IMG/VR virus record: IMGVR_UViG_3300020434_000055
Source: a virus
Taxonomy: Duplodnaviria > Caudoviricetes
Strand: one strand, 5' to 3'
DNA length: 64,000 nt
The translations under genes and the position numbers were made by a program. Below are positions 4,187 to 64,000 of this stretch, piece after piece; position 1 is the stretch's first letter; each line of letters starts with the position of its first letter. The notes beneath the pieces are model-generated. The model was given only the letters and a program-made list of their open reading frames with translations, did no database searches and was not told the DNA's origin.

Positions 4187-5140
4187 ATGGCAACATTAGC
4201 AGACATTCGTGCTAAACTTAAAGAACAAGAAGCACGTTCAGGCGGAAGCCGATCAGGCGGGGACAACGCCATTTTTCCATTTTGGAATCTAAAAGAAGGA
4301 GAGCAGGCAACTGTTCGTTTCTTGCCGGATGGAAATAAAGAAAACACTTTTTTCTGGAAAGAGCGATTGATGATTAAATTGCCCTTTCAAGGAGTCAAAG
4401 GTGATACAGACTCAAAACCAGTACAGGTACAAGTACCATGCATGGAAATGTATGGAGAATCTTGTCCTATACTAGCTGAGGTTAGAGGTTGGTTTAAAGA
4501 TCCTAAATTAGAGGATATGGGAAGAAAATATTGGAAGAAAAGATCTTATATCTTTCAAGGTTTTGTCGGAACAAATCCTTTAAACGAGGAAACTACACCA
4601 GAAAATCCAATTAGAAGATTTATAATTGGACCACAAATTTTCCAAATTATCAAGGGTGCATTAATGGATCCTGATATGGAAGATTTGCCAACTGACTCAG
4701 TCAATGGTGTTGATTTTAGAATAATCAAAACTAGTAAAGGTGGTTACGCAGACTACTCAACTTCATCTTGGTCAAGAAAATCTAGACCGTTATCTGAAGA
4801 AGAAACTAAATCAATTGAACAAAACAATTTGTTTAATTTGAGTGATTTCCTTCCAAAGAAACCATCAGAAGTTGATGTTAAGGTAATCAAAGAGATGTTT
4901 GAAGCATCTGTGGATGGCGAAGCATATGACCAAGAAAAATATGGTCAATACTTTAGACCAGCAGGTATTGGTTCTAGAACAGGAGATCCTGTAGCAGTTC
5001 CAAAATCAAACACACCGGCTCCTGAGAGCAACAAAACTCAGGAAACATCTACGGCTAATACTAGTTCTACTAAATCATCACAGCAGAATAGTAAGGCTGA
5101 AGACATACTGGCAATGATAAGAGCAAGACAACAAAAGTAG
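4187..5140 (+). CDS. 32: Single-stranded DNA-binding protein (gp32-like)
   Basis: ATVRFLP, VPCMEMYG...CPI, RKYWKKRSY, GGYADYSTSSW motifs; low-complexity tail. Confidence 0.93.
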   Translation: MATLADIRAKLKEQEARSGGSRSGGDNAIFPFWNLKEGEQATVRFLPDGNKENTFFWKERLMIKLPFQGVKGDTDSKPVQVQVPCMEMYGESCPILAEVRGWFKDPKLEDMGRKYWKKRSYIFQGFVGTNPLNEETTPENPIRRFIIGPQIFQIIKGALMDPDMEDLPTDSVNGVDFRIIKTSKGGYADYSTSSWSRKSRPLSEEETKSIEQNNLFNLSDFLPKKPSEVDVKVIKEMFEASVDGEAYDQEKYGQYFRPAGIGSRTGDPVAVPKSNTPAPESNKTQETSTANTSSTKSSQQNSKAEDILAMIRARQQK

Positions 5141-45536: not shown

Positions 45537-45627
45537 TCTGCGGTGGCGGAATTGGTAGACGCAATTAACTGTTCATTAATGGAGTAATTATTTACTCGTG
45601 TAGGTTCGAATCCTACCCGCAGAGCCA
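45537..45627 (+). tRNA. tRNA with GTT (Asn) anticodon and a long variable arm
   Basis: Acceptor TCTGCGG/CCGCAGA, G73, encoded CCA; T-arm GTAGG-TTCGAAT-CCTAC; anticodon arm ATTAA-CTGTTCA-TTAAT; variable stem GAGTAA/TTACTC. Confidence 0.88.
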
Positions 45628-49812: not shown

Positions 49813-50325
49813 TTACTTTGTGAATAACAAGTATATTGTTATGTCCTTTTTACGCCTGAATTTTAGCGTATCATTATCGATTTGATATACATTAAGTGGA
49901 CCGCCTAGCTTTTGAATTAGTTCTTCTGTATCAACCATAGCGTGTGCTGATGCTCTAAGCCTGACCATTGGATCATCGTGCCAATGCTTCATTTTGATTT
50001 TTGTTCCCCACACTAACGGCCACCAGTGTAATGGGTTTCGTCCAAACAGTTCTGCAAGAGCTAACCACCCTACTAAAGGAAACGCTGTTAAAGGTTCTAT
50101 CCACCATGGCATAAAATTGAAAGTAAACTTATCAATTATGTGAACTATGCCCCAATACGTTCCCCACACTGCGGCAAACAATGCCAAGACAAACCATGTT
50201 TCATCACGGTCAAAGTCACCATTATAGTCATCACGAGGTGCTCCGTAGTAAGGTGTTACACGTCTAACAGAGGGATGAAAGTTTGATCCTTTCTTCTTCC
50301 TTTTAGCCATTATATACAATCGCAA
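49813..50325 (-). CDS. Membrane protein
   Basis: Two hydrophobic segments. Confidence 0.7.
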   Translation of the reverse strand: MRLYIMAKRKKKGSNFHPSVRRVTPYYGAPRDDYNGDFDRDETWFVLALFAAVWGTYWGIVHIIDKFTFNFMPWWIEPLTAFPLVGWLALAELFGRNPLHWWPLVWGTKIKMKHWHDDPMVRLRASAHAMVDTEELIQKLGGPLNVYQIDNDTLKFRRKKDITIYLLFTK

Positions 50326-50410
50326 ATAGTATTAGCTATCATTAAAATTATAACATAACCCATATAACCAACACAACAATATAAAACTATTTTTTCCCAA
50401 ATATTAAACA

Positions 50411-50605
50411 TTATACACTAGTGCCTGCTCTTTTATCCTTTATAGCATTCACAATTTCTTTAAACATTGTATCAATCTCAGTGATCATATCCCATAGTGT
50501 AGCCATATCTCCATACTGCTTTGCTAATATGAATAATATTAAAATTAAGCATATTGAATTAAGGAGTGTAGCTATTTTAAAGATCATACTACTATTTAAA
50601 AGCAT
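50411..50605 (-). CDS. Small membrane protein
   Basis: ORF track. Confidence 0.5.
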   Translation of the reverse strand: MLLNSSMIFKIATLLNSICLILILFILAKQYGDMATLWDMITEIDTMFKEIVNAIKDKRAGTSV

Positions 50606-50641
50606 TAGGTAGGTTTGAATTTTAGAAGTGACTATGCAACC

Positions 50642-50767
50642 TTAGGATATTAATTTGTCTATATGCCCTGTTACTACTAGATAAACAAGAACTATTCCTA
50701 CAGCTATAATAAAGCGTAAAGACCAAACACTGACCTTTTCCCAGTACTGTATATCCTTATTGTCCAT
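50642..50767 (-). CDS. 41-aa membrane microprotein
   Basis: MDNKDIQYWEKVSVWSLRFIIAVGIVLVYLVVTGHIDKLIS; TAAATA upstream. Confidence 0.5.
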   Translation of the reverse strand: MDNKDIQYWEKVSVWSLRFIIAVGIVLVYLVVTGHIDKLIS

Positions 50768-51575
50768 GTGTATGATTATTTAAGTGAAAAGGGTATTTGT
50801 AGCCAGAAAAAACTGCTATAAAAAAATTTGAAATGCAGAAATGGTTCTGTAGTGGAGTTTTTTGAATTACGAAAAATTTATATAAGCTACTTTTTCTTTT
50901 CTAGGTGGTGATTTTGCACCGGTACAGCTTGTAGTTTGCACTTTAGAAAATTTTTTTATACGCCCCACCACCTCAACAAAAAAAATAAAAAAAATATTTT
51001 GTCAAGTGTAATGTCAAGCTATTCATTACACTGTACTCCAACTCCACCCACGTATATAATATTAGTATGCAAAAATATAAACTAATATGTTACACAAAGT
51101 TCAACCCGTATACTGTAGTACCTATCCCCTACACACTCCCTAACACTAACACGCCTGCCCACTACACATACAAGCAAGCCAACACCACAGCCCAGTCGCT
51201 ACACAATACACAACATCCATCCTGCGTACAAAAAGCCATCATTCAATGTGTGGGGCTAGAAGAAGTATAGTGTTTACACAGTGTAATTGAGACGCACACA
51301 TTACACTTAATTTAAACACAATTATATTATATAATAGTTGTATATGCAAAACAATATATATAAAGGCTTAAACATTATGACAATGCTTAATATATTTGGG
51401 GAACATATAAACAAGTTGTTGTTAGGGTTTGTGTGTACGGATGAGCTTACAACGTTAAGGGTGACACTACTTATTAGACTGCAAACAGTTACATTGATTT
51501 ATACTGTAAACAATGTTTAGTGAATGACTTACACAAGCAACAACAACAAAACAATAACAATAGAAAGGGCACAAT

Positions 51576-51731
51576 ATGAATGAACACTTACAACAATATA
51601 AAAGAGAGCTGTATGACGGACTTAGAGAAGAAGGACATACACATAAAGAAGCAATAAGACTTGTACTACAAATGACAAGCAATGAGAGAGCGTTAAACGA
51701 TTACGTAAAAGAGGAGGCTGAGAATGCTTAA
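51576..51731 (+). CDS. 51-aa hypothetical protein
   Basis: Preceded by GAAAGGGCAC; overlaps the next start. Confidence 0.6.
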   Translation: MNEHLQQYKRELYDGLREEGHTHKEAIRLVLQMTSNERALNDYVKEEAENA

Positions 51732-52008
51732 TACAAAACAAACGTTGAAGGTGCTAAAGTTTTTTGCACAACAAATAAATGATTGGACGTTGCTAAACGT
51801 TGCAAACTATAAGGACGAGGGCGTTGTAGATATTAGAAGTTATGACGTTGCTTGTTTATGTAAAGAGTATGCAAAGTTATTAAACAAAAGCAAATGCGAT
51901 GAACAGTTTAAAATTACTGTACAGGATGTTGCTACTGCATTTGATAACTTAGATACAGAGTTTAGGGAGTGTGTTGAAGAAGAATTTTATAAGCTAAAAA
52001 TATTTTAG
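51724..52008 (+). CDS. Hypothetical protein
   Basis: GAGGAGG SD. Confidence 0.75.
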   Translation: MLNTKQTLKVLKFFAQQINDWTLLNVANYKDEGVVDIRSYDVACLCKEYAKLLNKSKCDEQFKITVQDVATAFDNLDTEFRECVEEEFYKLKIF

Positions 52009-52263
52009 TTTAGTTTGCTTTTAACGTAAGCAATTATCTCGCCCCTGTAAGCTATTACGCCTCCTATTAACGGGGGGCCTAACAATACTAGCACCATTAA
52101 GTCTACCATATAAACATACTCCAATTGATTGTGCATACGCCACACAATGTTAAGAAGCCTACACTACTCACCGTAACAATTACGCCAAGCATCATCGCTT
52201 CAATTATATTCTTTCCTACTGCTTTTACTTTACTCACTTCTTTCCTTTCATGTTGTTTAGGTC

Positions 52264-52295
52264 GGGGAAGGTGCGAGGGCACGCGAACCCTCCCC
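52264..52295 (-). other. GC-rich hairpin with a UGCCCU loop
   Basis: GGGGAGGGT-TC-GCG-TGCCCT-CGC-ACCTTCCCC on the minus strand. Confidence 0.6.
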
Positions 52296-52325
52296 AATGA
52301 TCCTGTATGCCTTTTAATGTAAACA

Positions 52326-53363
52326 TTAATGTGGCTTAAGGACCGTTTGTTCAGCCATGGATTCCCAAATGTCTGGAAATGCCTTAGCCAAGTCAGCTAT
52401 CTTGAGGACGGTTCTTAAAGAGATCTCTCTCAAGCGTCTCTTATGATCCCATACCCAGTCAACGACTTTCTTTTCCGTGCCCTGTGGTAGATCGTATGGT
52501 TTTAGCATACCATCTCGCACAATCTGATTAATTCTTAATAGCTTCTCTCGTATAGTGTCAATAGTCAAGTCAATGTAATGACATCTACTTTCTAATGCTT
52601 GTAAATGATCTCGTAACTTCTTGCTACGGACATTGTCAAATTTTATATTCGTTATAAAGATAACAGAGCCTTTGAACTCAAATGCTCCAGGCACTCCTTC
52701 TCGTCTTAACATATGAGAGTCAGTGTTCCAACATATTCTTCGTACCTTTTTACTATCCAACGCGGCTTTCAAGATGTTTAAACTCAAGTCATCCAATAGC
52801 ACACTATCACAGTCATCGAATACAAGGATATTGTCTTTCTCTTTCAACTCATGCAATTTACAATATAGTCCTATGGCACTCATAGCGCCTTTAACAACTT
52901 CTGATTTAGGTTTCGTATCCGCTAGGGTGTTGACTACTTCATATTTCTCTAGTACAGTCTCTACTCCATATGATTTTCCTACCCCAGGCGGACCGCTTAC
53001 TATCATAGCTCGGACATCTCCTTTTTTAGTTGCCTTAGTCATTCGTTCTAATATTTCAAACCTTTTACGCATTCGTTCAATTGTTTCCTCATCAGACTCC
53101 ATTGCTTTCACTTCAGGAGTTTTATCTCGTAGCTGATTTTCGTCCGTAACTGATAAACGGATTATACCATTGTCAGGAACTTTAGGGAATCTTTCTGTTG
53201 CAACTTTAACAGTCACAAATCCTCCATCCTTGTGTGGATAAGGTTGATAGGCTTTAACTAAAGCGAAGGTTTCATTTTCTACATGATGTCCGCGATAGTC
53301 TCCCTCTAAAACATATATGCTCTTTGGAATTGGTCTGGATTTAACTTCTAAATTTTTTGGCAT
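52326..53363 (-). CDS. AAA+ ATPase
   Basis: GPPGVGKS, LVFDDCD, IFITN, ALESR. Confidence 0.9.
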   Translation of the reverse strand: MPKNLEVKSRPIPKSIYVLEGDYRGHHVENETFALVKAYQPYPHKDGGFVTVKVATERFPKVPDNGIIRLSVTDENQLRDKTPEVKAMESDEETIERMRKRFEILERMTKATKKGDVRAMIVSGPPGVGKSYGVETVLEKYEVVNTLADTKPKSEVVKGAMSAIGLYCKLHELKEKDNILVFDDCDSVLLDDLSLNILKAALDSKKVRRICWNTDSHMLRREGVPGAFEFKGSVIFITNIKFDNVRSKKLRDHLQALESRCHYIDLTIDTIREKLLRINQIVRDGMLKPYDLPQGTEKKVVDWVWDHKRRLREISLRTVLKIADLAKAFPDIWESMAEQTVLKPH

Positions 53364-53386
53364 TGCCCTCTTTTTTATTATTCATT

Positions 53387-53415
53387 AGTATAACACCACT
53401 CGTGCCAAAAGTCAA
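53387..53415 (-). promoter_or_regulatory. Early sigma70-type promoter (family member)
   Basis: TTGACT-17-TATACT, TTTGGCA in the spacer. Confidence 0.8.
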
Positions 53416-53591
53416 GGTTTAATGATATTCTTTAGGACTTGAATTTCATATTGAATCTCTTGGACCTTGCTTATAGCTTCGTCTCGAATGTCTGCTTCAT
53501 ATGACTTGAGTACTAAAGCCTCTGCTTCATTAGCCAAGTCGGTCAAATACTCTACCTGAACATTTACTTTTGTCTTTGTTATGTCTATCAT
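53412..53591 (-). CDS. 59-aa hypothetical protein
   Basis: Open frame MIDITKTKVNVQVEY..., below the track cutoff. Confidence 0.55.
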   Translation of the reverse strand: MIDITKTKVNVQVEYLTDLANEAEALVLKSYEADIRDEAISKVQEIQYEIQVLKNIIKP

Positions 53592-53667
53592 ATAATCGTT
53601 GCTATTGCCCGTCCTAATTCAAGTGCAACAGGTCCTATAATGTACATTACTTCTAATAAGAATTCCA

Positions 53668-54261
53668 TTACTCAGACACCATAAATCTGTGGTTACCTAT
53701 AATAGCTGTTTCCACATAAGTGCCACCCCAAGCCGGGTTAGCAATGTTGGGGTTATAATAAAATGTAGCACCATCTGTAGGATCGATTTCCCACACATGA
53801 TTCATCACTAACAGTGCAACAGTAACAGAGTCTCTCCATGCTGTCATATTCTCTGGAATAACTGTTCCATCCATGTACGTAACCCATATCATATCACGAT
53901 CTCCATCGCAATACCAACTAAACTGACATCTATCTCTTCGTGGCCAATACACACGCTCTTCTTTAGGTAACGTAGGATCCTTACGTGTTTTCCACGATTC
54001 TCTCATAGGACCATCCTTTACTACCTTACAAACAGTACTAGGCCAACGTTTGTCGTCAACTCTGTTCATTGTTACGTGTGCAACGCCTATCTTTCCTAGT
54101 GTGCTTTCATGGCGTGCTTCAAAGTATACGTTCTGTGCCATACAGTATACTTCATTCATATCTTGATTAATACCACTGTCTATTTCGTAGTTAAGTGCAA
54201 GAGAAGCCATTACCGCTCTTGCTGTAGCCATTACTGTTTCTAGTGTGCCTACTGTAGCCAT
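53668..54261 (-). CDS. SleB-like cell wall hydrolase (Hydrolase_2)
   Basis: CMAQNVYFEAR, VA.V..NRV, CQFSWYCDG, GATFYY, IGNHRF. Confidence 0.92.
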   Translation of the reverse strand: MATVGTLETVMATARAVMASLALNYEIDSGINQDMNEVYCMAQNVYFEARHESTLGKIGVAHVTMNRVDDKRWPSTVCKVVKDGPMRESWKTRKDPTLPKEERVYWPRRDRCQFSWYCDGDRDMIWVTYMDGTVIPENMTAWRDSVTVALLVMNHVWEIDPTDGATFYYNPNIANPAWGGTYVETAIIGNHRFMVSE

Positions 54262-54686
54262 TCACCTTCTCCATTTTTGCAATAGTATGCACCAACGTCA
54301 ACGCCTTTATATTGCACTCTGTCCATAGTTGCATCAACTTCGTTGTTGAACACTTCCATGCAATCTAAACTAGTACTAGATACCGGAAGCACAATTGCTT
54401 CTCCATTAGTCAAGTGCATATGTAATTTAAATACGTAAGGACCTGCATAACTTTTGTTAGACAATCCTATTCCCATACCAATTATAAACGTAGTAGCGAC
54501 AATCATAAACCATACAAAGCTATCAATCTTTCTAAACTTAGAATAGATACTCGTACTAAAGTTGCCTAATCCTCTAAAAGGATCTCTCTTAGCAGGTCTA
54601 CGTTTTGCCTTAGGCTTTTTCATTCGTAACTTATGTTTCTTCGTTAACTTTCTTAGTTCTTTATTTGATTTCATTAGTAAGGCCAT
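54249..54686 (-). CDS. Membrane-anchored hypothetical protein
   Basis: Basic N-terminus, TM segment. Confidence 0.65.
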   Translation of the reverse strand: MALLMKSNKELRKLTKKHKLRMKKPKAKRRPAKRDPFRGLGNFSTSIYSKFRKIDSFVWFMIVATTFIIGMGIGLSNKSYAGPYVFKLHMHLTNGEAIVLPVSSTSLDCMEVFNNEVDATMDRVQYKGVDVGAYYCKNGEGEWLQ

Positions 54687-54869
54687 CCCATCATCATATG
54701 TAATGTGTCAGTCACCCAAAGGATATACCATATGCATACTACCCCTAGGACCATTTGAATTAACTTCTCTGTCCAATAGTTCATTAAAGTTGTCCCCATA
54801 TGTTAATGTAATGATTAAGAATTAGCATTACAATTATACCTGTGATACAAATTGTATTAATTTTCCACA

Positions 54870-55199
54870 TTATATTGCTTCTCCTTCATTACATCTAATG
54901 AATTTTCCATTAGGTAATTGTTTAAGACAAATGTCATGTCCTTCTTTTTCATGATCTTCTATCTTCTGATTTAATCTCTGTTCTATAAGAGTGTTAAAGA
55001 ATTGTAGGAAGTATGTTTCCTGTTCAGTCTGTGTCATATCACATATCTCTGATTTAAGAAACATCTTGCAAACTTCTTTGTCAGATACTATAGGAAGTTC
55101 TTCTGCCTTTGCATTCACGGCGTTAAAAATACTATAACACCAGATATAGATTACAAAGAATAAAAAGACTCCTAATTTTTTACTTGGTTTCTTGTCCAT
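54870..55199 (-). CDS. Exported hypothetical protein
   Basis: ATG follows AGGGCAC; signal-like segment. Confidence 0.7.
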   Translation of the reverse strand: MDKKPSKKLGVFLFFVIYIWCYSIFNAVNAKAEELPIVSDKEVCKMFLKSEICDMTQTEQETYFLQFFNTLIEQRLNQKIEDHEKEGHDICLKQLPNGKFIRCNEGEAI

Positions 55200-55214
55200 G
55201 TGCCCTTTCAATTG

Positions 55215-55450
55215 TTATCGTTGAAATGATCCACCGTTCTTAATTGAACGGAGAACATTTTTTGTTTCAGTTATTATTTCTTCTTTAACACCTTCGTTGG
55301 TTAATAGCTTCGCATTCTTTACCGCATTAGCCATCTTAATGTAATCATTCCCAGTAAAAGTTGCTCCAGAAAGTCCTATATTAAACGCAGAACAATTCGT
55401 TAGCATTACTGCCAAAAACGATATTAAAAATAACTTCTTCAACATATTCA
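55215..55450 (-). CDS. Putative lipoprotein
   Basis: MLTN-C lipobox; ATG follows the promoter. Confidence 0.65.
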
Positions 55451-55457
55451 TACTATT

Positions 55458-55486
55458 ATAATACATCCATCCTGTTTTGGTGTCAA
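55458..55486 (-). promoter_or_regulatory. sigma70-type promoter
   Basis: TTGACA-17-TATTAT. Confidence 0.7.
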
Positions 55487-55513
55487 TTACCAAAGAAGCC
55501 GCATAAATGCTGG

Positions 55514-55957
55514 CTAAAATGGTATTTCGTCCTTAGTAGATTGGACTTTTTCGGTACTTTCCGTCTTTTCTTCTTTAGTCCATCTATATTCATCACCAGT
55601 CCATTCAGGATCTTCGTAATTGTCAATCCATTCATTAGTGTCAATGTCTTGTTCTTCTAACGGAACACACTCTTCAACTTTTTTAACACAAGGTTCTCTA
55701 TATTTTTCATAGTCGCTATCACCTTGCGAGTCGTGTTGCCAATCCGAACAATACACTTCAACAGGATCATCTTTATAATATCCTTCAGTCCATTCAACTC
55801 TTTCTAGACCTCCGTGTTCACTAACTGCATCAACTGCCTCGTCTTTGCTATTAGCAATCACATCATATTCAACCCATGTTGTATAATGTTGTCTTACTCT
55901 GTATTTTGATTTTCCAATGTCTCTGTGTGGATTATCTTTGCTTATTGGTTTATTCAT
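55514..55957 (-). CDS. Acidic early hypothetical protein
   Basis: AGGGCAC leader; Y.V...A.S.DEA motif. Confidence 0.75.
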   Translation of the reverse strand: MNKPISKDNPHRDIGKSKYRVRQHYTTWVEYDVIANSKDEAVDAVSEHGGLERVEWTEGYYKDDPVEVYCSDWQHDSQGDSDYEKYREPCVKKVEECVPLEEQDIDTNEWIDNYEDPEWTGDEYRWTKEEKTESTEKVQSTKDEIPF

Positions 55958-56020
55958 TGTGCCCTTTCTTTATTGTTAATACTATTATAAATCCTAATTG
56001 TGTTGAAATTATGTTCCAAT

Positions 56021-56284
56021 TTAAGCAATTCTATGACCTTTAATTGGTAATATAGTTTCCCTTGCATCTATAATATTCTCGTTTTCTAATGCTTTTAATA
56101 CATCAGCTTCACTTGAATTCGTGTATATCTCTGCCATGCCTGCATTCCATTCACATACATCTACATCTGCTTCAATGTTGTGATCCTTTAATGCTGACTT
56201 GATTGATGGAGCAATACTTCTATCTTCATCTAAATCCCAGTCACCAATGTCTGCTACGGCAATCGTTATTTTGTTAGTCTTCAT
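56021..56284 (-). CDS. Early hypothetical protein resembling an internal domain of the 1993-4056 protein
   Basis: GDWD...I...L.D..I.A.V...E.N....I.T.SS...V.KAL. Confidence 0.65.
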   Translation of the reverse strand: MKTNKITIAVADIGDWDLDEDRSIAPSIKSALKDHNIEADVDVCEWNAGMAEIYTNSSEADVLKALENENIIDARETILPIKGHRIA

Positions 56285-56525
56285 ATGTGTCCTTTTCCCT
56301 TGCGTCTTCCATTGGATGATTTAGTAATTCAACATAATCTCCAAAGTGCTTAATGAAAGTTTCGCATAGACTATAATAGTCTGATCCTTTCATTTCGTCT
56401 AAAATTTCTTTTTCTTTAAATGCAGGCAAACTTAATTCCTTACATAGTTTCGAGGCAACGCCTAATATATAAAAGGCGTTACCTTCTGGTCCTGAAATAT
56501 CAATAATGTGTTTATGCTGACTCAT
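56274..56525 (-). CDS. Hypothetical protein
   Basis: IDISGPEGNAFYILG motif. Confidence 0.75.
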   Translation of the reverse strand: MSQHKHIIDISGPEGNAFYILGVASKLCKELSLPAFKEKEILDEMKGSDYYSLCETFIKHFGDYVELLNHPMEDAREKDTYED

Positions 56526-56943
56526 ATGTTTGATAATTGTCGTACCCTGTTCTAATTAAATAACAAGCACCAGTCCATGCTACTTTATAATTCTCGTCAA
56601 GTATATTTCCTCTAGGCTTGTTAAGTGTTGGAGCATTCCAACCTGCGGGTTTAAGAATGTCACCTTTTCTCCAGCTCTTCCCGTTAGCTGTGCAATCGTT
56701 CTTAACAATGAATGAATGTACTGATCTATGTTGACCATTACTATCTGAAGTGACGATTCTAATCCATTTTCTTTTAGGAGAATCTTCAATGTACAATCCT
56801 TCTTTGAACTCTTTAAACATTTTGTCTTTAACCGTATAGTCTACTCCCGGAGTCTTACCAAATGTTCCGTCTTTTCTGTGGTAAGTCCATCTACTATAAT
56901 CTTCGGCAATGTTCTCTAAGTATTTTTTCAATTGTTCTTGCAT
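56512..56943 (-). CDS. Phage early hypothetical protein
   Basis: SVHSFI...KGDILKPAGWNAP. Confidence 0.8.
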   Translation of the reverse strand: MQEQLKKYLENIAEDYSRWTYHRKDGTFGKTPGVDYTVKDKMFKEFKEGLYIEDSPKRKWIRIVTSDSNGQHRSVHSFIVKNDCTANGKSWRKGDILKPAGWNAPTLNKPRGNILDENYKVAWTGACYLIRTGYDNYQTYESA

Positions 56944-56950
56944 AGTGCTA

Positions 56951-57289
56951 CTATTTTCCTTCCTTTGCTTCTGCTTGTAGATTTAACATAACATCAACAT
57001 CGTGTGGGATTTCTTCTCCGCCACCTGATGCTGGGAGGTTGTATTCGACAATGTCGAAAGCATATACATCCTTTTTATTTGCTTGCCATAGTTTGTATAT
57101 GTTGACTCTTGTTGGCAAATCGCTTTTGTACGCATCATTCATAAAATATTCTAATGCTGATCTGTACCAAGCGGCGTCTTGTGCATTTTTAAAATTTGCA
57201 TAAACACTTCCATGGTCGACTGAAAAGTCTGTTCCGTAGCCAGTGCTGTTTGAAAAAATTAAAATGTCTTTTTCTATTTGTTTTTGCAT
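56951..57289 (-). CDS. Hypothetical protein
   Basis: GGAGGGCAC leader. Confidence 0.75.
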   Translation of the reverse strand: MQKQIEKDILIFSNSTGYGTDFSVDHGSVYANFKNAQDAAWYRSALEYFMNDAYKSDLPTRVNIYKLWQANKKDVYAFDIVEYNLPASGGGEEIPHDVDVMLNLQAEAKEGK

Positions 57290-57310
57290 AAGTGCCCTCC
57301 TTATTCTTTA

Positions 57311-57339
57311 ATAATAAAGCCTGATACCAAAAAAGTCAA
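57311..57339 (-). promoter_or_regulatory. Early sigma70-type promoter (family member)
   Basis: TTGACT-17-TATTAT, TTTTGGTA in the spacer. Confidence 0.75.
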
Positions 57340-57464
57340 TACACAAAGAAACCGCTATCTATGGGCCTTATTTGCATGGTAATTGGTTTAGAAGGACACA
57401 TTATTGGTGAAATCCAATGTTTACCTTCCACAAGTGATGCATCATGTTCGAATAATGTATCCAT

Positions 57465-59089
57465 CTAAGCCTCTTGCCATACTATCGGCACTTCTTTACT
57501 GAATATTAGGGAGGCAGTTAAGGGAGTAAAGCCCTTTGACAAGCAATCTCTCTTAAACTCCTCCCGGGCACTACGCAATGCGAGATCGTAATCGAATCCC
57601 ACATGGTAATAAATGTTCCGGAAATTACCGGATTGAAATGTGAATTGAAACTGCCTTTTGCTGTTAGGTCTTATCATGTCGCAAGTTCACCTTTCTCTAA
57701 TTTGTTTAATGGATCTTCTTCATAAAGATACCAAGGTAACTCTTCATCATCATAGATGTTATAAAATTGATTCTCTATTTCCTTATAGTCGTGTATTAAC
57801 TTTTCAGGTTCAACATCGTGCCAGCCTTTCATACCACCTGATAGAATATGTGTAAGAGTCTCACTATGTCCATCGCAACCATGTTCTTTCATTATGTTAT
57901 GATATTCAACTTGCATACATCTTTCAGCCATGACATAGTGCGTCAGCTGTAAAGCTCTTTCATCATGATGGATAACAGTCTCTAAAGGATCTATTAATGT
58001 AGCTCCTATATAAAATGTATTATTCATAATCCCAGTCTCCTACATGACATTCATCCCAGTGATAGTCGGCATGATGTTCGTCTGCTTTCTTTAATGCTTC
58101 TTCGTATGAACTTGCTGTTATAGTTGCTTCATGATGTATAGATTGTATTCCATATATTGTATATTCTTTTTGATTTAAATGTCGTTCAACATCCATACCC
58201 ATCTTCTTCTCATACTCAGCCTTCTGCAAAAGTTTGTCTTTATTTGTCAATGCCTACCTCCTCAGCAATTTGTTCCTCAACTTCTCCACCTTCAGGGTTG
58301 CCCCATTCACATTGATTACAAGCCTTCTCCACAGCTAAATCCTTTGTCTCTGATTCGTCATACCAACCATCAACATAAACTTCAGGCACCTCTACATATT
58401 GTTCGTACCATACCTTTTCATATGATGTGACCTTAAACTCTTTAGTCCTTGTCTTATGATGTCGTACTCCTGGCGCATACTTCATACCAAGGAACTCCTT
58501 TGATTGTGCTTTGTTTAATCTTACCATCCTAATCCAGCTCCAAATAAAATTAATATAATCATCGTTGGCACAACTATTGTCAGTGGCCAAAAGTCTAATA
58601 TTTCTAATATCAATTTTTTAGTTTTCTTCATGCCAGTCCTCCTCTACTTCATCTACATTATAATATGGTCCACCGAACATACCATCTTTAACTATTTTGT
58701 CTGCTTTGTCTAATGCTTCGTCTTCATCATCAGCTTCGATGACTATTGTTTCTAAATACTCAGCTTCTTCTCTGGAAGCATCTAGGTCAACATGAATCTT
58801 AAATTTAGCCATATACTTTATCCTCCATCTCCTTCATTCGTTCTATAAACTTTGCTTTCACTTCAGGCGTTGCAACAGCCATCAACTCTAAAAACAAATC
58901 CCAAGGTTGGATACGGTCAGTCTTATCAACATTCCATACACCTCGTTGAATTATATCATAAGCAATATCCAACGCATCATCGTCACCGTCGGCAAAGCCT
59001 TTGATAAATCTTTCTTCGTCTTGTTGATTCCAAGCCATTATATTATTGCCACCAATGTCGCGAATACAAACAAACCAACCATCGTCCAT
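57465..59089 (-). CDS. Run of six small acidic early ORFs (57465-57677, 57674-58027, 58020-58250, 58240-58590, 58618-58812, 58805-59089)
   Basis: ORF track; overlapping start/stop codons. Confidence 0.75.
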
Positions 59090-59126
59090 ATAGTCAGCTT
59101 CGTTAGGTATCTATATACTTCGTCCA

Positions 59127-59774
59127 TTATGCTCCTTCCATGTTTTGTGCTTTTTTATCTACAACTAATTCCTTAACCTTAATAGCATCTTCATCTCTCT
59201 TCTGTGCTTCATACTCAGCTTGATATTCTGTTATGCCATATAGGTCATCAAGTTCTTTTCCATCGTCTGTGTTCCAAAACTTATCTTGAGAACCTTTAGG
59301 AGCAATAGTTGATATCTCATAACATACATCATCACCATTGTTCCATATACCCATAAAGTCACATCCAGGTTCATGGTAAGTTGCTCTTATACTAATATTA
59401 GAGTTCTCATCAATAAACTTCTCATATGCTCCAATGGGAGGTGCCCATGCTGAATCAAATCCCAAAAGCAATTCTGATTCATCTATACCTATTTCATTTC
59501 TTTGAACACCATAGAATTCATGTATATCCCATTTGGTACTCCAGTTTTCAACAGCCCAGCCATACCAGTCATCGTGTCCATACTTCTTCTGTAAAGCCTT
59601 TCTTTTAGAACCATCTGCCACCGTATCTCTTAACTCCTTAGGCATTGGATAAAAGTATTCCAATAAACCATCAGAAGCCTTTTCATATTTTTCGTTTGTA
59701 GCAATCTTTTCAATCTTATCGATTACCTTGTTAGGTCCTGTGATTTTAATATTATTATTACACCAATTTGGCAT
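59127..59774 (-). CDS. DUF1281/YubB-type ferredoxin-like protein
   Basis: MPNWC.N.I.I.G, DWY.W...NW.TKWD, FDSAWAPP, Y.EPG. Confidence 0.8.
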   Translation of the reverse strand: MPNWCNNNIKITGPNKVIDKIEKIATNEKYEKASDGLLEYFYPMPKELRDTVADGSKRKALQKKYGHDDWYGWAVENWSTKWDIHEFYGVQRNEIGIDESELLLGFDSAWAPPIGAYEKFIDENSNISIRATYHEPGCDFMGIWNNGDDVCYEISTIAPKGSQDKFWNTDDGKELDDLYGITEYQAEYEAQKRDEDAIKVKELVVDKKAQNMEGA

Positions 59775-60273
59775 TAAACCTCCGTCGCTTTATGTTTAAG
59801 GAAACTTGGATGCACATTCCACTTCATACCTGTGCTTGGAATATTAACCAAGATATATTTTTGTTTGATTCTTTCAATTTTGCCTTCCATTAGCATACCT
59901 CTTCTACCTTTAAAGAAACAAGTTTCACCAGGCTTAAAACTCATCTTCGTTTGTTGCGCCAAGCTATCTTGTCTACATCTAATGTGAGCCTTAAGGTTTT
60001 TCAAATCCTTTTCACTCATTTTGTATATTGCGTCTATTACTTTATCGTTCATGTGCCCTCCTATAACGGCATTGGCCAACCTGTGCTGTCATACATAGGT
60101 GACCTTGTTGTTGGATTTACTCTTATGATTGTAGCATATTCTCCAAATTTTTCTTTAGCCTTTAAAGCTTCTTTCAATGTATCAAAGTATCCGCCATTCT
60201 TATTTGTTCTAAGAAGTCGAACTTCGTACATTCTTTTGGAGTTATATTTTTCTATGTCTTTCTTTGTGCCCAT
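59774..60273 (-). CDS. Two small early ORFs (59774-60052, 60061-60273)
   Basis: ORF track; the first has a GGAGGGCAC leader. Confidence 0.7.
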
Positions 60274-60282
60274 TGTTCTTTA

Positions 60283-60311
60283 ATATTAATGTCTGCTACC
60301 AAAATAGTCAA
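60283..60311 (-). promoter_or_regulatory. Early sigma70-type promoter (family member)
   Basis: TTGACT-17-TAATAT, TTTTGGTA in the spacer. Confidence 0.75.
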
Positions 60312-60342
60312 TCGCTTAGAATGAGTCAATAGTGCGGCTCAT

Positions 60343-60864
60343 TTAAGCAAGAATCTTTTTATATGACTCCTTTAGCATATCAAGATACTCTTTTACTGCC
60401 ACTGGCTCTAATAATTTCATTTCCCCAGCTAGGTATTTTCCGCTTTCACTATATCTCATTTCATTGAAGTACCAAGTTCCAATCGGTCTGCCTAAGTAAT
60501 CCTTTTCATCTTCTAACTTCATAAGATAAATGAATTGCTCACCACTATTAAATCCGTTCTTAATGTAGTCAGCTTCGTTTTTATATACTTTGTAGCCACA
60601 GTCTTTTTCGCCTCTGTCTCTACCGTAATATACATTCTGCACATCATACATCTCATTCTTACGGTCATCAAAATCAATTGAATCACCTATAATGTAATGC
60701 CACTTAGAACTATCACCAAGACTAATTCCTTTTAATACTTTACTTGGATCAGTCCAATGCTCAATTAATGTATAGCCTAGTCCAGCAGGGTACCCGTCCC
60801 AATGTTGATATGAACCTATTATTCTATTCTTTTGTTGTATGCCTACTCTTGCCCTTGTACTCAT
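60343..60864 (-). CDS. Phage hypothetical protein
   Basis: MSTRA.VG, YQHWDGYP...G, YYGRDRGE. Confidence 0.8.
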   Translation of the reverse strand: MSTRARVGIQQKNRIIGSYQHWDGYPAGLGYTLIEHWTDPSKVLKGISLGDSSKWHYIIGDSIDFDDRKNEMYDVQNVYYGRDRGEKDCGYKVYKNEADYIKNGFNSGEQFIYLMKLEDEKDYLGRPIGTWYFNEMRYSESGKYLAGEMKLLEPVAVKEYLDMLKESYKKILA

Positions 60865-60873
60865 TATACCTCC

Positions 60874-61868
60874 CTAGTATAGTTTGTCTGACGGTTGGTC
60901 TTCAAGTTCCTCTCCAGAGTAATCGTCAGTTTCATTACTCGGATAATCTTCATTCCAAGGTGTTTTACATCTCGGACATTTATCGTCTGTTTCATTTAAT
61001 GGTCCATACTCACAATTTCTGCAATACCAATCGTCAGCATATTCCAATAGGTCTTCTTGTTCAGCTTGTTCTAAATACATTATGTCTCTGTCTATCATTA
61101 TGGAAATACCCTTTTTGGTTTAATGCCTTCAGCTTCTTGTGACTTGCTTGGTTCTTCCCATATCTCTCCATATGGATTAACTTCAGTCTGTAAGTCTTTT
61201 AAAATACCTTCAACTTCAGCTTTAAACAATAACGGCTCCTCTACCTTGACCGCGTGTTCAAGTCTTGCTTTTAATTCGTATAAGAAGTGATTAGCCATGT
61301 GTCAGCCATTTCCCCATATAGTCGTCTAGTCTCTCACCCTGTTTGTCTTTAGTGTGTCCCATATAATTGTATCCTTCTCCTACCACTTGGGCTCCATGAT
61401 CGCAATCCAACACCCAACCTGCAGGTCCGTATAGTGTAGCAACACCTCTATGGATTTGGCCCTGCTTGTTTTTGTAATACACTTTGTCACCCTTACGGAT
61501 TTCATCATAACACTCGTCTTCCCAACTTAACATTTCAGCAAATTCAGCCATTACCATAATCTCCCATTACCAATTGACATACCATTTTCGTCAACGGTCT
61601 CCATTGCTTTTTTATCCATATGCTCTGCCCAAGTAGATGTTATGCCATAGCCCTTTGCTTCATGACATCCTTCCACAGGGTAATACTTGTAAAATAGTTC
61701 TTCAACTTTTTTACCCATGCCGTGTTCTTGTAAGTTTAAAACGATAGCTCTGATCAAGCTTCTTTGATTTGTGCCACTTGTCCAATATGAATGATCGTCA
61801 CTCATTTCATATGTCCAATCGTGTTCTTTTAGTTCCTTCTCTAATGTGCCTAAGTCTTTTCTTTTCAT
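60874..61868 (-). CDS. Four small early ORFs (60874-61098 Zn-ribbon, 61098-61298, 61291-61557, 61551-61868)
   Basis: ORF track; CRNC...CPRC in the first. Confidence 0.7.
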
Positions 61869-61891
61869 GCCTTTAATGCCTTTCACTTATT

Positions 61892-61920
61892 ATAATAAGG
61901 CCTTGTACCAAAATAGTCAA
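61892..61920 (-). promoter_or_regulatory. Early sigma70-type promoter (family member)
   Basis: TTGACT-17-TATTAT, TTTTGGTA in the spacer. Confidence 0.8.
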
Positions 61921-61939
61921 GGCCTTAATTTCATTCTTT

Positions 61940-62572
61940 TTAGTCAAGCAATACCATGTATTCTTTGGCGTAATGCTTTCTGAACCAATCAAGCCCATCT
62001 CTAACTAACTGCCAATTTGGGTGATCCCCATTGTTTGGATCAGCTGTTATTTCAGCGCCTTTGATTAAATCATATACCGCTACAGCATTAGGTTGTAACC
62101 AAACCTTTTCTCCGCTATATGGATTTTTGATTAGTTCCGGGTCTACACCAATGTCTAGTGGTAACAGCTTCTTTGGGATAGCCGGTTGATGGTCAGATAC
62201 TTTAGGTGCTTCTTCTCCATTTATCATCTAGTCTGCCCTCGATTGCATATAAGCCTTCAACCCGTACTTTTCAAGAGTGTCTGCGAATGCATCGCAACCT
62301 ACTTCTTTTATGTCCATTGATTGAGTGTGTGATGCATCGTGTCCTTCGCTTATTTTATGCCAAGGTATTCTATATCCACCATATGTACCACTACCGCCTA
62401 TATCGTTTGATTTCAGCCAAGCCACGAATGGGCCTCTAGCTGGTCGGATTAAAACATTAGCGAAACCACAATACATTGGTTCACCATGCTTTTCTACAAA
62501 TTCATCAACAGCCGAATCTGATGATGCCTTCGCTTCTGCGAAGATGTCTTTAGGTGCTTTTATATTATTCAT
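61940..62572 (-). CDS. Two early ORFs (61940-62227, 62228-62572)
   Basis: ORF track; the second has a GAAAGGGCAC leader. Confidence 0.75.
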
Positions 62573-62594
62573 GTGCCCTTTCATTTATACTATT

Positions 62595-62623
62595 ATAATA
62601 AGGCCTGAGTGCCAAAACGTCAA
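62595..62623 (-). promoter_or_regulatory. Early sigma70-type promoter (family member)
   Basis: TTGACG-17-TATTAT, TTTTGGCA in the spacer. Confidence 0.75.
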
Positions 62624-62703
62624 CCGCTAAGAAGTCACGTTCTATGCGGGTCATTTAAGGGGGCGGCAATAAAAGCCTGACTATCTGGTAGCTTAACCCC
62701 CGA

Positions 62704-62891
62704 AAAAGCGAATAGGTAGACTAATAAAAGCCTACCTACTCTCTATTCATATTTGGACTATGTCCGATCGCCGAATATTGTGAGCTGTACAACGGTGTCA
62801 CTCCCGCCTCACCCATACCCGTCTAAATTCTGGTTTAGACAGTCGCCCAACTCCTCTACTATATTAAAGTAGCCAGCTTGGGCGGCTTGGT
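62704..62891 (-). ncRNA. Candidate structured non-coding RNA ending in a terminator
   Basis: At least five stems in a GC-rich gap; mismatches resolve to G-U pairs on the minus strand. Confidence 0.55.
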
Positions 62892-63140
62892 CTATTTGGT
62901 GAATAGATTCAATATCTTATTCTTTGTTGCCTGTAGTTGTTCTTGACCTTCTAGCCATTTATCTTTTTGAAATGCAATAGTCTTCAACTTCTCGCTTTCA
63001 ATAAAGTAAGCCACCTTCTCCGGAACAAGTTTAACCTGATATATAATCTGATCAACTTTTTCTGAAACAGGTTCAGCCATTGCTTTAAATGACACAAACG
63101 TCAAAATCAAGATGCCTAAAATGATGCCTAATATTTTCAT
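62892..63140 (-). CDS. Exported hypothetical protein
   Basis: Signal peptide. Confidence 0.75.
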   Translation of the reverse strand: MKILGIILGILILTFVSFKAMAEPVSEKVDQIIYQVKLVPEKVAYFIESEKLKTIAFQKDKWLEGQEQLQATKNKILNLFTK

Positions 63141-63473
63141 CTAGTCCGCCTTCACTTCTGATGGTATTGGTGCAGACGCAGAAACCGTTGCCGGTTCAAT
63201 GTCAACTTCCAATTTAACTTTACCAACATTCCGCTTAACATATTGAGTAATAGCCGTTTGACTAATCTCACTTTGAAAGTCAGAATGTTTCATCAAGAAT
63301 GAACATATATCAGCTTTCGACATAGGCTTCTCTAGTTCCACCAATTTAACTTCAGTATGACGTCTCATGTTGAGAGTCTTGATTCTGCCAACATAGTCGT
63401 TCGCGAATCTTACTTTCGTTAAACCTGATGGACTTGTAGATATACCTGCTACTTTAAATGTTCTTGAGTCCAT
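63141..63473 (-). CDS. Hypothetical protein
   Basis: AAGGAG SD; KVRFAND..RIK.L. Confidence 0.8.
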   Translation of the reverse strand: MDSRTFKVAGISTSPSGLTKVRFANDYVGRIKTLNMRRHTEVKLVELEKPMSKADICSFLMKHSDFQSEISQTAITQYVKRNVGKVKLEVDIEPATVSASAPIPSEVKAD

Positions 63474-63574
63474 GATTGATTCTCCTTATTTGATTAATTA
63501 GATAGCTGTTCAATTGATAATTAAAATGGTTAATCCATAAAATATAAGAATTGAAAACTACCATATATACAACC

Positions 63575-63603
63575 ATTATAATGCCAAACACCAAAAAAGT
63601 CAA
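63575..63603 (-). promoter_or_regulatory. Early sigma70-type promoter (family member)
   Basis: TTGACT-17-TATAAT, TTTTGG in the spacer. Confidence 0.8.
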
Positions 63604-63686
63604 GTAAATTGGGCCTTAAATGACCCGCTATTTTATTGGTTTTTCTGCCAAAAATCTGCCAAAAATTTCAAACAAACCAATTTTTC

Positions 63687-63862
63687 AGCAAATTCTGGAG
63701 CAAATGGTTGACAGCAAACCGGTGGAGCAAACAGGAAGCAAACCCCGATTGAGCAAACGTCAGCAAACCTCAACAAAGAGCAAACATCAAATTGGAGCAA
63801 AGCTGAGTTTAAGCTAGTAGTCAGCAAAGCGTAAGCAAAGGCTTTATAGTCAGCAAAGCGTA
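63687..63862 (+). repeat. Iteron-like array of 12 AGCAAA hexamers
   Basis: Counted by eye; includes the 16-bp direct repeat TAGTCAGCAAAGCGTA at 63818 and 63847. Confidence 0.85.
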
Positions 63863-63866
63863 TCAA

Positions 63867-63930
63867 TAGGGGACCATAGGGGTACGGTAGGGGCATGGTC
63901 TGACACCATAGAGAGCCGGCCCAATAGGGG
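63867..63930 (+). repeat. Four TAGGGG motifs
   Basis: 63867, 63877, 63888, 63925. Confidence 0.75.
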
Positions 63931-64000
63931 CTAGTTTCCAAAAAAATACTTCAAATTAGAAAATGGTTGAGGATGGTGACGATAGGCATAGTTAAAATAC

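Follow-up and report, generated by a model that had tools for sequence, protein, structure and literature searches.

The locus raises the question of whether the non-coding stretch directly behind a small early phage gene (g82) is a structured RNA in its own right or the untranslated end of the messenger that precedes it. The stretch, here called element A (62704-62891, minus strand), belongs to IMG/VR record IMGVR_UViG_3300020434_000055, of which 64,000 nucleotides were analysed (the window). A preliminary description, made from the sequence alone, had proposed a novel multi-stem RNA of about 190 nt, selected for its structure. This interpretation was partly supported, and element A is best described as an orphan, either a structured 3' trailer or a candidate phage small RNA. 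With moderate confidence, we read it as a lineage-specific terminator cassette that ends the P1 unit (promoter P1, g110 and g82) as its untranslated 3' trailer.

The source phage is widespread, uncultured and marine: of the marine DNA runs, at least 14, which come from about nine studies, contained all sampled 31-nt words of the region 62500-63200, and six metatranscriptome runs contained 61-79% of these words.

The early transcription unit and the anatomy of element A

The features of the unit, of element A and of the next early unit are as follows.

63575-63603, minus strand: promoter P1 (TTGACT-17-TATAAT), matching the consensus at 11 of 12 positions; first early unit
63141-63473, minus strand: open reading frame g110 (110 aa), first gene of the P1 unit
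62892-63140, minus strand: open reading frame g82 (82 aa, signal-peptide-like N terminus), second gene of the P1 unit, with its stop directly adjoining element A
62844-62884, minus strand: hairpin H1, with a 7-bp outer stem, an internal loop of 5+5 nt, a 5-bp inner stem and a 7-nt loop
62819-62842, minus strand: hairpin H2, with a 9-bp stem and a 6-nt loop
62780-62812, minus strand: hairpin H3, with a 5-bp outer and a 4-bp inner stem and several G-U pairs
62749-62778, minus strand: hairpin H4, a weak AU outer stem around GGAC-ATA-GTCC
62703-62741, minus strand: intrinsic terminator, with a 13-bp stem (62741-62710) and a 6-nt loop, followed by GCUUUUU
62659-62701, minus strand: post-terminator hairpin GGGGG...CCCCC, read from the sequence, within the lineage-specific cassette
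62646-62660: 15-nt motif (GCGGGTCATTTAAGG on the plus strand) at the right edge of the cassette, with an inverted repeat copy upstream of P1
62595-62623, minus strand: promoter P2 (TTGACG-17-TATTAT) of the next early unit, conserved in relatives
62228-62584, minus strand: gene of 118 aa downstream of P2

The product of g110 had no match in Pfam or PHROG, and no function could be assigned from these two collections to g110, g82 or the 118-aa gene. Homologs of g82 were found in only three clusters, and this gene evolves fast, its DNA being 54-69% identical to that of the sister lineages.

Element A begins right after the TAG stop of g82 (62894-62892), as the preliminary description had noted, and its description as GC-rich for this genome also held (45.7%, compared to 32.7% for the whole window). 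All the stems named there were present on the minus strand, and the minimum free energy fold reproduced every one of them. The outer stem of H1 pairs CGCCCAA (62884-62878) with TTGGGCG (62850-62844) and encloses the pairing of CTACT (62872-62868) with AGTAG (62860-62856). H2 pairs CTGTCTAAA (62842-62834) with TTTAGACGG (62827-62819), and H3 pairs GTGAG (62812-62808) with CTCAC (62784-62780), with GCGG/CCGT inside. In H4, ATATT (62778-62774) pairs with AATAT (62753-62749) around GGAC-ATA-GTCC at 62765-62755.

The last stem, preceded by an AU-rich linker, is a true terminator, counted here as 13 bp where 12 bp had been given before. Five of its 13 pairs are G-C, and it lies directly downstream of g82. 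It shows all the features by which intrinsic terminators are recognized, i.e. a GC-containing stem of at least 5 bp, a loop of 3-8 nt and a U-tract, on the transcribed strand and at the end of a gene, and it was the only strong call in a terminator scan of 14 kb (50000-64000). The lineage-specific cassette as a whole extends over about 62652-62888, including 50 nt past the terminator.

The earlier claim that element A is non-coding was confirmed, as stops break all six frames and no credible gene was present. It is hardly conceivable that the element encodes a tiny peptide. The open frames to be considered are one of 26 codons with an ATG start on the minus strand (62816-62736), which ends in the terminator stem, and one of 39 codons with a TTG start on the plus strand (62753-62872). 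Neither is preceded by a recognizable ribosome-binding site, the plus-strand frame runs against transcription, and no equivalent was found in the sister lineages. When the plus-strand frame, taken as 50 residues, was compared with 1.84 billion representative proteins, it gave only repeated partial matches to proteins of 487-939 aa.

The 15-nt motif GCGGGTCATTTAAGG occurs in the window as two exact copies (62646-62660, plus strand; 63614-63628, minus strand) and one near copy with two mismatches (60334-60348, plus strand), whereas 0.07 copies would be expected. All three copies lie just upstream of early sigma70-type promoters, and the two exact ones, which are inverted, bracket the entire P1 unit. 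Relatives retain AATGACCCGC at the place of the 62646-62660 copy. The motif is a candidate regulator-binding site or recombination boundary.

The surroundings of the unit are variable in several respects. Upstream of P1, TTTGCT(G/C) repeats form a dense array (63690-63880, minus strand), and a relative (L047) possessed at the corresponding place an array of a different unit, GGCTCTG (L047:2700-2790). This repeat region also varies among otherwise near-identical contigs. Downstream, patches with sharp borders (62100-62360 and 61400-61700) distinguish near-identical metagenome contigs from the window; these include gene replacements behind the 118-aa gene (a 90-aa gene for a 95-aa gene) and insertions near 61600. 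Judged from these sequence comparisons, the bounded patches indicate probable mosaic recombination in the early region.

Folding signal and transcription of the element

Together with its terminator, element A folded markedly better than its shuffled versions (z = -4.06; 0 of 200 shuffles folded as well). Without the terminator (62745-62891), the z-score was -2.28 and five of 200 shuffles folded as well. When 5110 windows of 150 nt were ranked after correction for composition, those containing the terminator came 15th to 33rd, while the terminator-free window 62751-62900 ranked 317th, roughly in the top 6%. The folding signal is thus mostly due to the terminator and speaks only in part for the hairpins before it, the remainder being marginally above chance. 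Besides the tRNA at 45537-45627, the strongest composition-corrected folding was found at 52251-52400 and 57501-57650 (both minus strand) and at 4350-4775 (both strands), in windows that are largely coding sequence.

The preliminary description had further taken the G-U pairs as a sign of the transcribed strand and of selection on RNA structure. This argument proved weak: G-U pairs make up 8 of the 58 pairs in the minus-strand fold and 5 of the 60 in the plus-strand fold, which is not diagnostic, and the plus strand also folded better than its own shuffles (z = -3.84). The strand of element A is set instead by the U-tract and the direction of the flanking genes.

Evidence for transcription came from assembled RNA contigs of four metatranscriptome runs belonging to four studies (62687-63513, 62653-63248, 62770-63513 and 62812-63546). 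Every one of them crosses the g82 stop by at least 80 nt into element A. Contig ends at the g110 side (63513-63546) lie downstream of P1, and the region upstream of this promoter (63577-63700) was uncovered in all four runs. At the other side, the last covered positions are 62687 and 62653 in the contigs of two studies, i.e. 16 and 50 nt past the U-tract, with the reservation that contigs cannot define RNA ends, and a further contig of low depth (62553-62726) crosses the terminator. The RNA contigs on the P1 unit were deeper than those on the next gene. Gaps between RNA contigs extend over 62574-62686 in one run and 62466-62652 in another, an uncovered part proving nothing by itself. Taken together, the contigs, which show neither the ends, the strand nor the abundance of an RNA and may include carried-over DNA, fit and hint at a P1 transcript that includes element A as a 3' trailer and in most cases stops at the terminator or a little behind it. 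The earlier transcript claim stood in that element A is present in RNA libraries; it did not stand as to a discrete 190-nt transcript, the contigs being joined to the upstream mRNA.

The reading of element A as a terminator cassette would work as follows. RNA polymerase starting from P1 would transcribe g110 and g82, then about 150 nt that may fold into four short hairpins, and would stop at the 13-bp hairpin and its U-tract (62741-62703). Termination at this point would insulate the P1 unit from the next unit, whose promoter P2 lies about 80 nt further. Protection of the mRNA 3' end from exonucleases would be a further role of the terminator hairpin, and probably also of the preceding hairpins. 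Termination and insulation are the roles that the cassette as a whole may be expected to fulfil; the multi-stem part seems to have no proven function of its own. What speaks against a plain trailer is that 150 nt of GC-rich, hairpin-rich sequence exceeds the needs of a terminator.

The main rival to this reading is that element A is a discrete stable small RNA with its own function, either cut from the P1 transcript or derived from the 3' UTR and sharing the terminator of the mRNA. This is possible but doubtful, although no test result contradicts it. In its favour, the RNA contigs show the element to be transcribed, and an AU-rich linker lies before the terminator hairpin, a feature of many small RNAs that share a terminator. 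Against it, the contigs are continuous with the mRNA, no discrete species was seen in them, and the folding signal is weak once the terminator is left out.

A structured domain followed directly by a terminator is also the classic architecture of cis-acting control, and the terminator is crossed by low-depth contigs (one at 62553-62726 and one that ends at 62653), as would be the case if element A were a riboswitch-like attenuator of read-through or an antitermination RNA of the put/EAR type. We consider such a role very unlikely. No aptamer and no meaningful Rfam match were found at E up to 10, and no domain is conserved in relatives. By eye, the only alternative pairing was the 5-bp CUACU/AGUAG, 130 nt away, and none convincingly disrupts the terminator. 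Moreover, the strong P2 on the downstream gene makes control by read-through dispensable, and the sister lineages have no terminator here at all.

Copies of element A and the RNA-gene slot in relatives

Element A was carried by 15 metagenome contigs, of which 14 are identical across the element; in the remaining one, the low-coverage contig L081, a base of the inner hairpin of H1 is changed and another is missing. Overall divergence from the window is 3-5% in some of these contigs, with the differences clustered in patches outside 62520-63499. This 1-kb block was invariant in nine contigs, coding parts included, and the non-coding DNA upstream of P1 varies where element A does not. Because the flanking coding sequence is equally invariant, the invariance of element A says nothing specific about selection. 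Covariation likewise has nothing to act on, since the copies are near-identical and the lineage is shallow. Selection on RNA structure, which the preliminary description had put forward, was therefore not demonstrable, all copies and the neighbouring genes being essentially identical.

Searches beyond this lineage recovered no relative of the element. It had no blastn match in the phage GenBank collection, and two exact words of 17 and 21 nt had none in IMG/VR; a 20-nt word gave one chance match among the GTDB representative genomes, in a Gaiellaceae MAG, which did not extend beyond the word. In 63 related loci searched with blastn and nhmmer, only promoter P2 was conserved and element A was not found, and a covariance model of the element (R2) found only itself in 47 loci and the whole window. 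The earlier remark that it belongs to no known family agreed with the comparison to Rfam 15, which gave nothing at the gathering threshold; at E up to 10, DUF805b matched best, on the terminator hairpin, with a score of 10.9 bits where the threshold is 35.6.

A tRNA-like nature of H1 was considered separately and rejected, as ARAGORN was negative at standard settings in bacterial and mitochondrial modes, and RF00005 gave no match at E up to 10. Only the mitochondrial mode at an 80% threshold called an 'Ile(aat)' on H1.

The nearest other lineages share 74-85% DNA identity with the window over the aligned positions of g110 and the 118-aa gene. In these sister lineages, the same slot, from the g82 stop to P2, is filled by a different non-coding element of about 150-260 nt, called element B. 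Between the lineages, sequence similarity is lost about 17 nt behind the g82 stop (ACCAA..GCCCAA) and returns at AATGACCCGC near 62651. The preliminary description had named as adverse outcomes that only the terminator be conserved in relatives, that no covariation be found and that no discrete transcript be detected. The nearest relatives keep nothing of element A, terminator included; overall, the claim of a multi-stem RNA came near to failing on these points, in tests of low power given the shallow lineage.

Copies of element B (alignments A3 and A4; covariance model R1) are located as follows.

L066:1076-1242: element B
L064:829-996: element B
L001:2767-2914: element B
L092:1242-1389: element B
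L094:232-381: element B

Thirteen distinct B sequences of five subtypes were obtained, with 77% aligned identity overall and 89% in a 150-nt core. Their four-hairpin structure was paired at 95.6%, compared to 32-46% when the partners were slid. Five pairs were changed on both sides yet kept, and none of 500 shuffles attained the covariation score; the compensatory changes trace to few independent events. The invariant motifs of B are a loop TATCGTGGTA, a hairpin GGCTGTGACAGCC and a conserved C-rich single-stranded tail ending in CCACCCAG. Element B matched no Rfam family, and no terminator was found at its slot in the sister lineages. A metagenome scan with an invariant 17-nt word of B gave 111 matches, mostly due to chance; eight loci of the new batch were true B copies, most of them repeating contigs or variants already known. 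From the alignments, element B looks like an undescribed phage RNA motif. It is a better-supported new RNA motif than element A, and tests of covariation and expression have power there.

Elements A and B occupy the same slot between common flanking motifs and are alike in length; both consist of several hairpins, among them a small one that has an ATA-type loop and is followed by an AU-rich run. They differ in that B has no terminator, possesses the conserved C-rich tail and shows compensatory changes, and in that no similarity is detectable between the two by sequence or covariance model. We consider it quite unlikely that element A is a strongly diverged homolog of B that drifted beyond recognition, rather than a replacement. 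Such a homology would be consistent with the position between the same genes and with small features occurring in the same order, namely the ACCAA..GCCCAA 5' edge, the ATA-loop hairpin, the AU-rich run, a further hairpin, the G-run/C-run hairpin and AATGACCCGC. H4 is the sole motif of element A that resembles anything in B, as compared by eye. The g110 tree, which places the window outside all B lineages as their sister (support 92/81), also fits a diverged homolog; from this position, neither the A nor the B state can be called derived. Against homology, alignment, profile and covariance models in both directions were all negative. Local Smith-Waterman scores between A and B were at or below the mean of shuffled sequences, and an nhmmer profile of B had no match in element A with all filters off. 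Model R1, built from 12-13 B sequences, gave nothing on 62704-62891 with filters off and E up to 10 in 14 kb, while model R2 of element A had no match at any B locus. The invariant motifs TATCGTGGTA, GGCTGTGACAGCC and CCACCCAG are all missing from A.

Homologs of g110 were present in many marine phage contigs, with tRNA genes or a non-coding gap behind them. Among those about 45-57% identical, tRNA genes were found within a few hundred bases downstream in nine of 13 loci. Each such contig carried from one to three of the tRNAs Leu-UAA, Met-CAU and Arg-UCU, in varying order. The slot contents in these wider relatives include the following.

L049:3425-3674: tRNA genes
L050:3460-3707: tRNA genes
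L053:3408-3583: tRNA genes
L054:3558-3804: tRNA genes
L055:3421-3593: tRNA genes
L056:3011-3186: tRNA genes
L057:3555-3724: tRNA genes
L048:3325-3520: a third GC-rich, hairpin-rich non-coding stretch, after the g110 homolog of a tRNA-less relative

The L048 stretch ends in a GC hairpin and CTTTTTCGG right before a TTGACA promoter, and blastn found it similar to neither A nor B.

Across the phage family, the position behind g110 is thus a variable RNA-gene slot. The RNA genes present in the slot of all relatives examined raise the prior that element A is a functional RNA. The tRNA genes directly following the g110 homolog in nine of 13 distant relatives and the covarying B in the sister lineages accordingly count in favour of a discrete RNA, whereas the lack of homologs, and hence of a conserved seed or covariation, counts against it. 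It is unlikely that the slot is a turnover site of phage RNA genes in which A would be a discrete stable RNA set free from the early transcript, possibly cut by RNase P at the acceptor-like 7-bp stem of H1, and a functional analogue of T4 RNAC and RNAD.

Taken alone, element A offers mostly the familiar combination of a terminator and a structured trailer, and it is the context of the slot that deserves attention: one fixed place in the early region of widespread uncultured marine phages holds tRNA genes, the covarying B or the orphan A. If element A were a discrete RNA, the slot would offer a natural series of exchangeable phage small RNAs.

Comparison with known systems

The preferred reading, a terminator cassette at the end of the P1 unit, corresponds to an intrinsic terminator with a structured trailer that ends a phage early operon. 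Element A resembles this system in its 13-bp stem, 6-nt loop and U-tract after the last gene, in the RNA contigs that end just past the terminator, and in the promoter that follows. It departs from it in its extra GC-rich hairpins of about 150 nt, and in that the sister lineages lack a terminator at the corresponding position.

Bacteria possess small RNAs that are derived from 3' UTRs and share the terminator of the mRNA, such as CpxQ, SroC and DapZ. Like these, element A lies in a 3' UTR, shares the mRNA terminator and its U-tail, and is AU-rich just ahead of the terminator hairpin. Unlike these, it has no known processed species, conserved seed or target.

A phage precedent for a discrete RNA in such a place comes from T4, where the stable RNAs RNAC and RNAD are encoded at the distal end of the tRNA region; their roles are still unknown (PMC3014915, PMC9697503). 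These species 1 and 2 RNAs (NC_000866, 70908-71171) differ from element A in several respects: RNAC has a tRNA-like T arm, which element A lacks, the T4 RNAs are proven to be discrete while element A is known from contigs continuous with the mRNA, and the unit of element A contains no tRNA gene. Nor does sequence similarity favour the analogy, as in local alignments with T4 rnaC and rnaD, 34 to 157 of 200 shuffles scored as high for A and 107 to 193 for B. The likeness lies in the kind of element and its place, i.e. a structured RNA of 120-190 nt other than a tRNA, at the 3' end of a unit and at a place held by tRNAs in related phages. Should element A prove to be a discrete RNA, the slot would give a handle on the role of the non-tRNA RNAs in T4-type tRNA regions.
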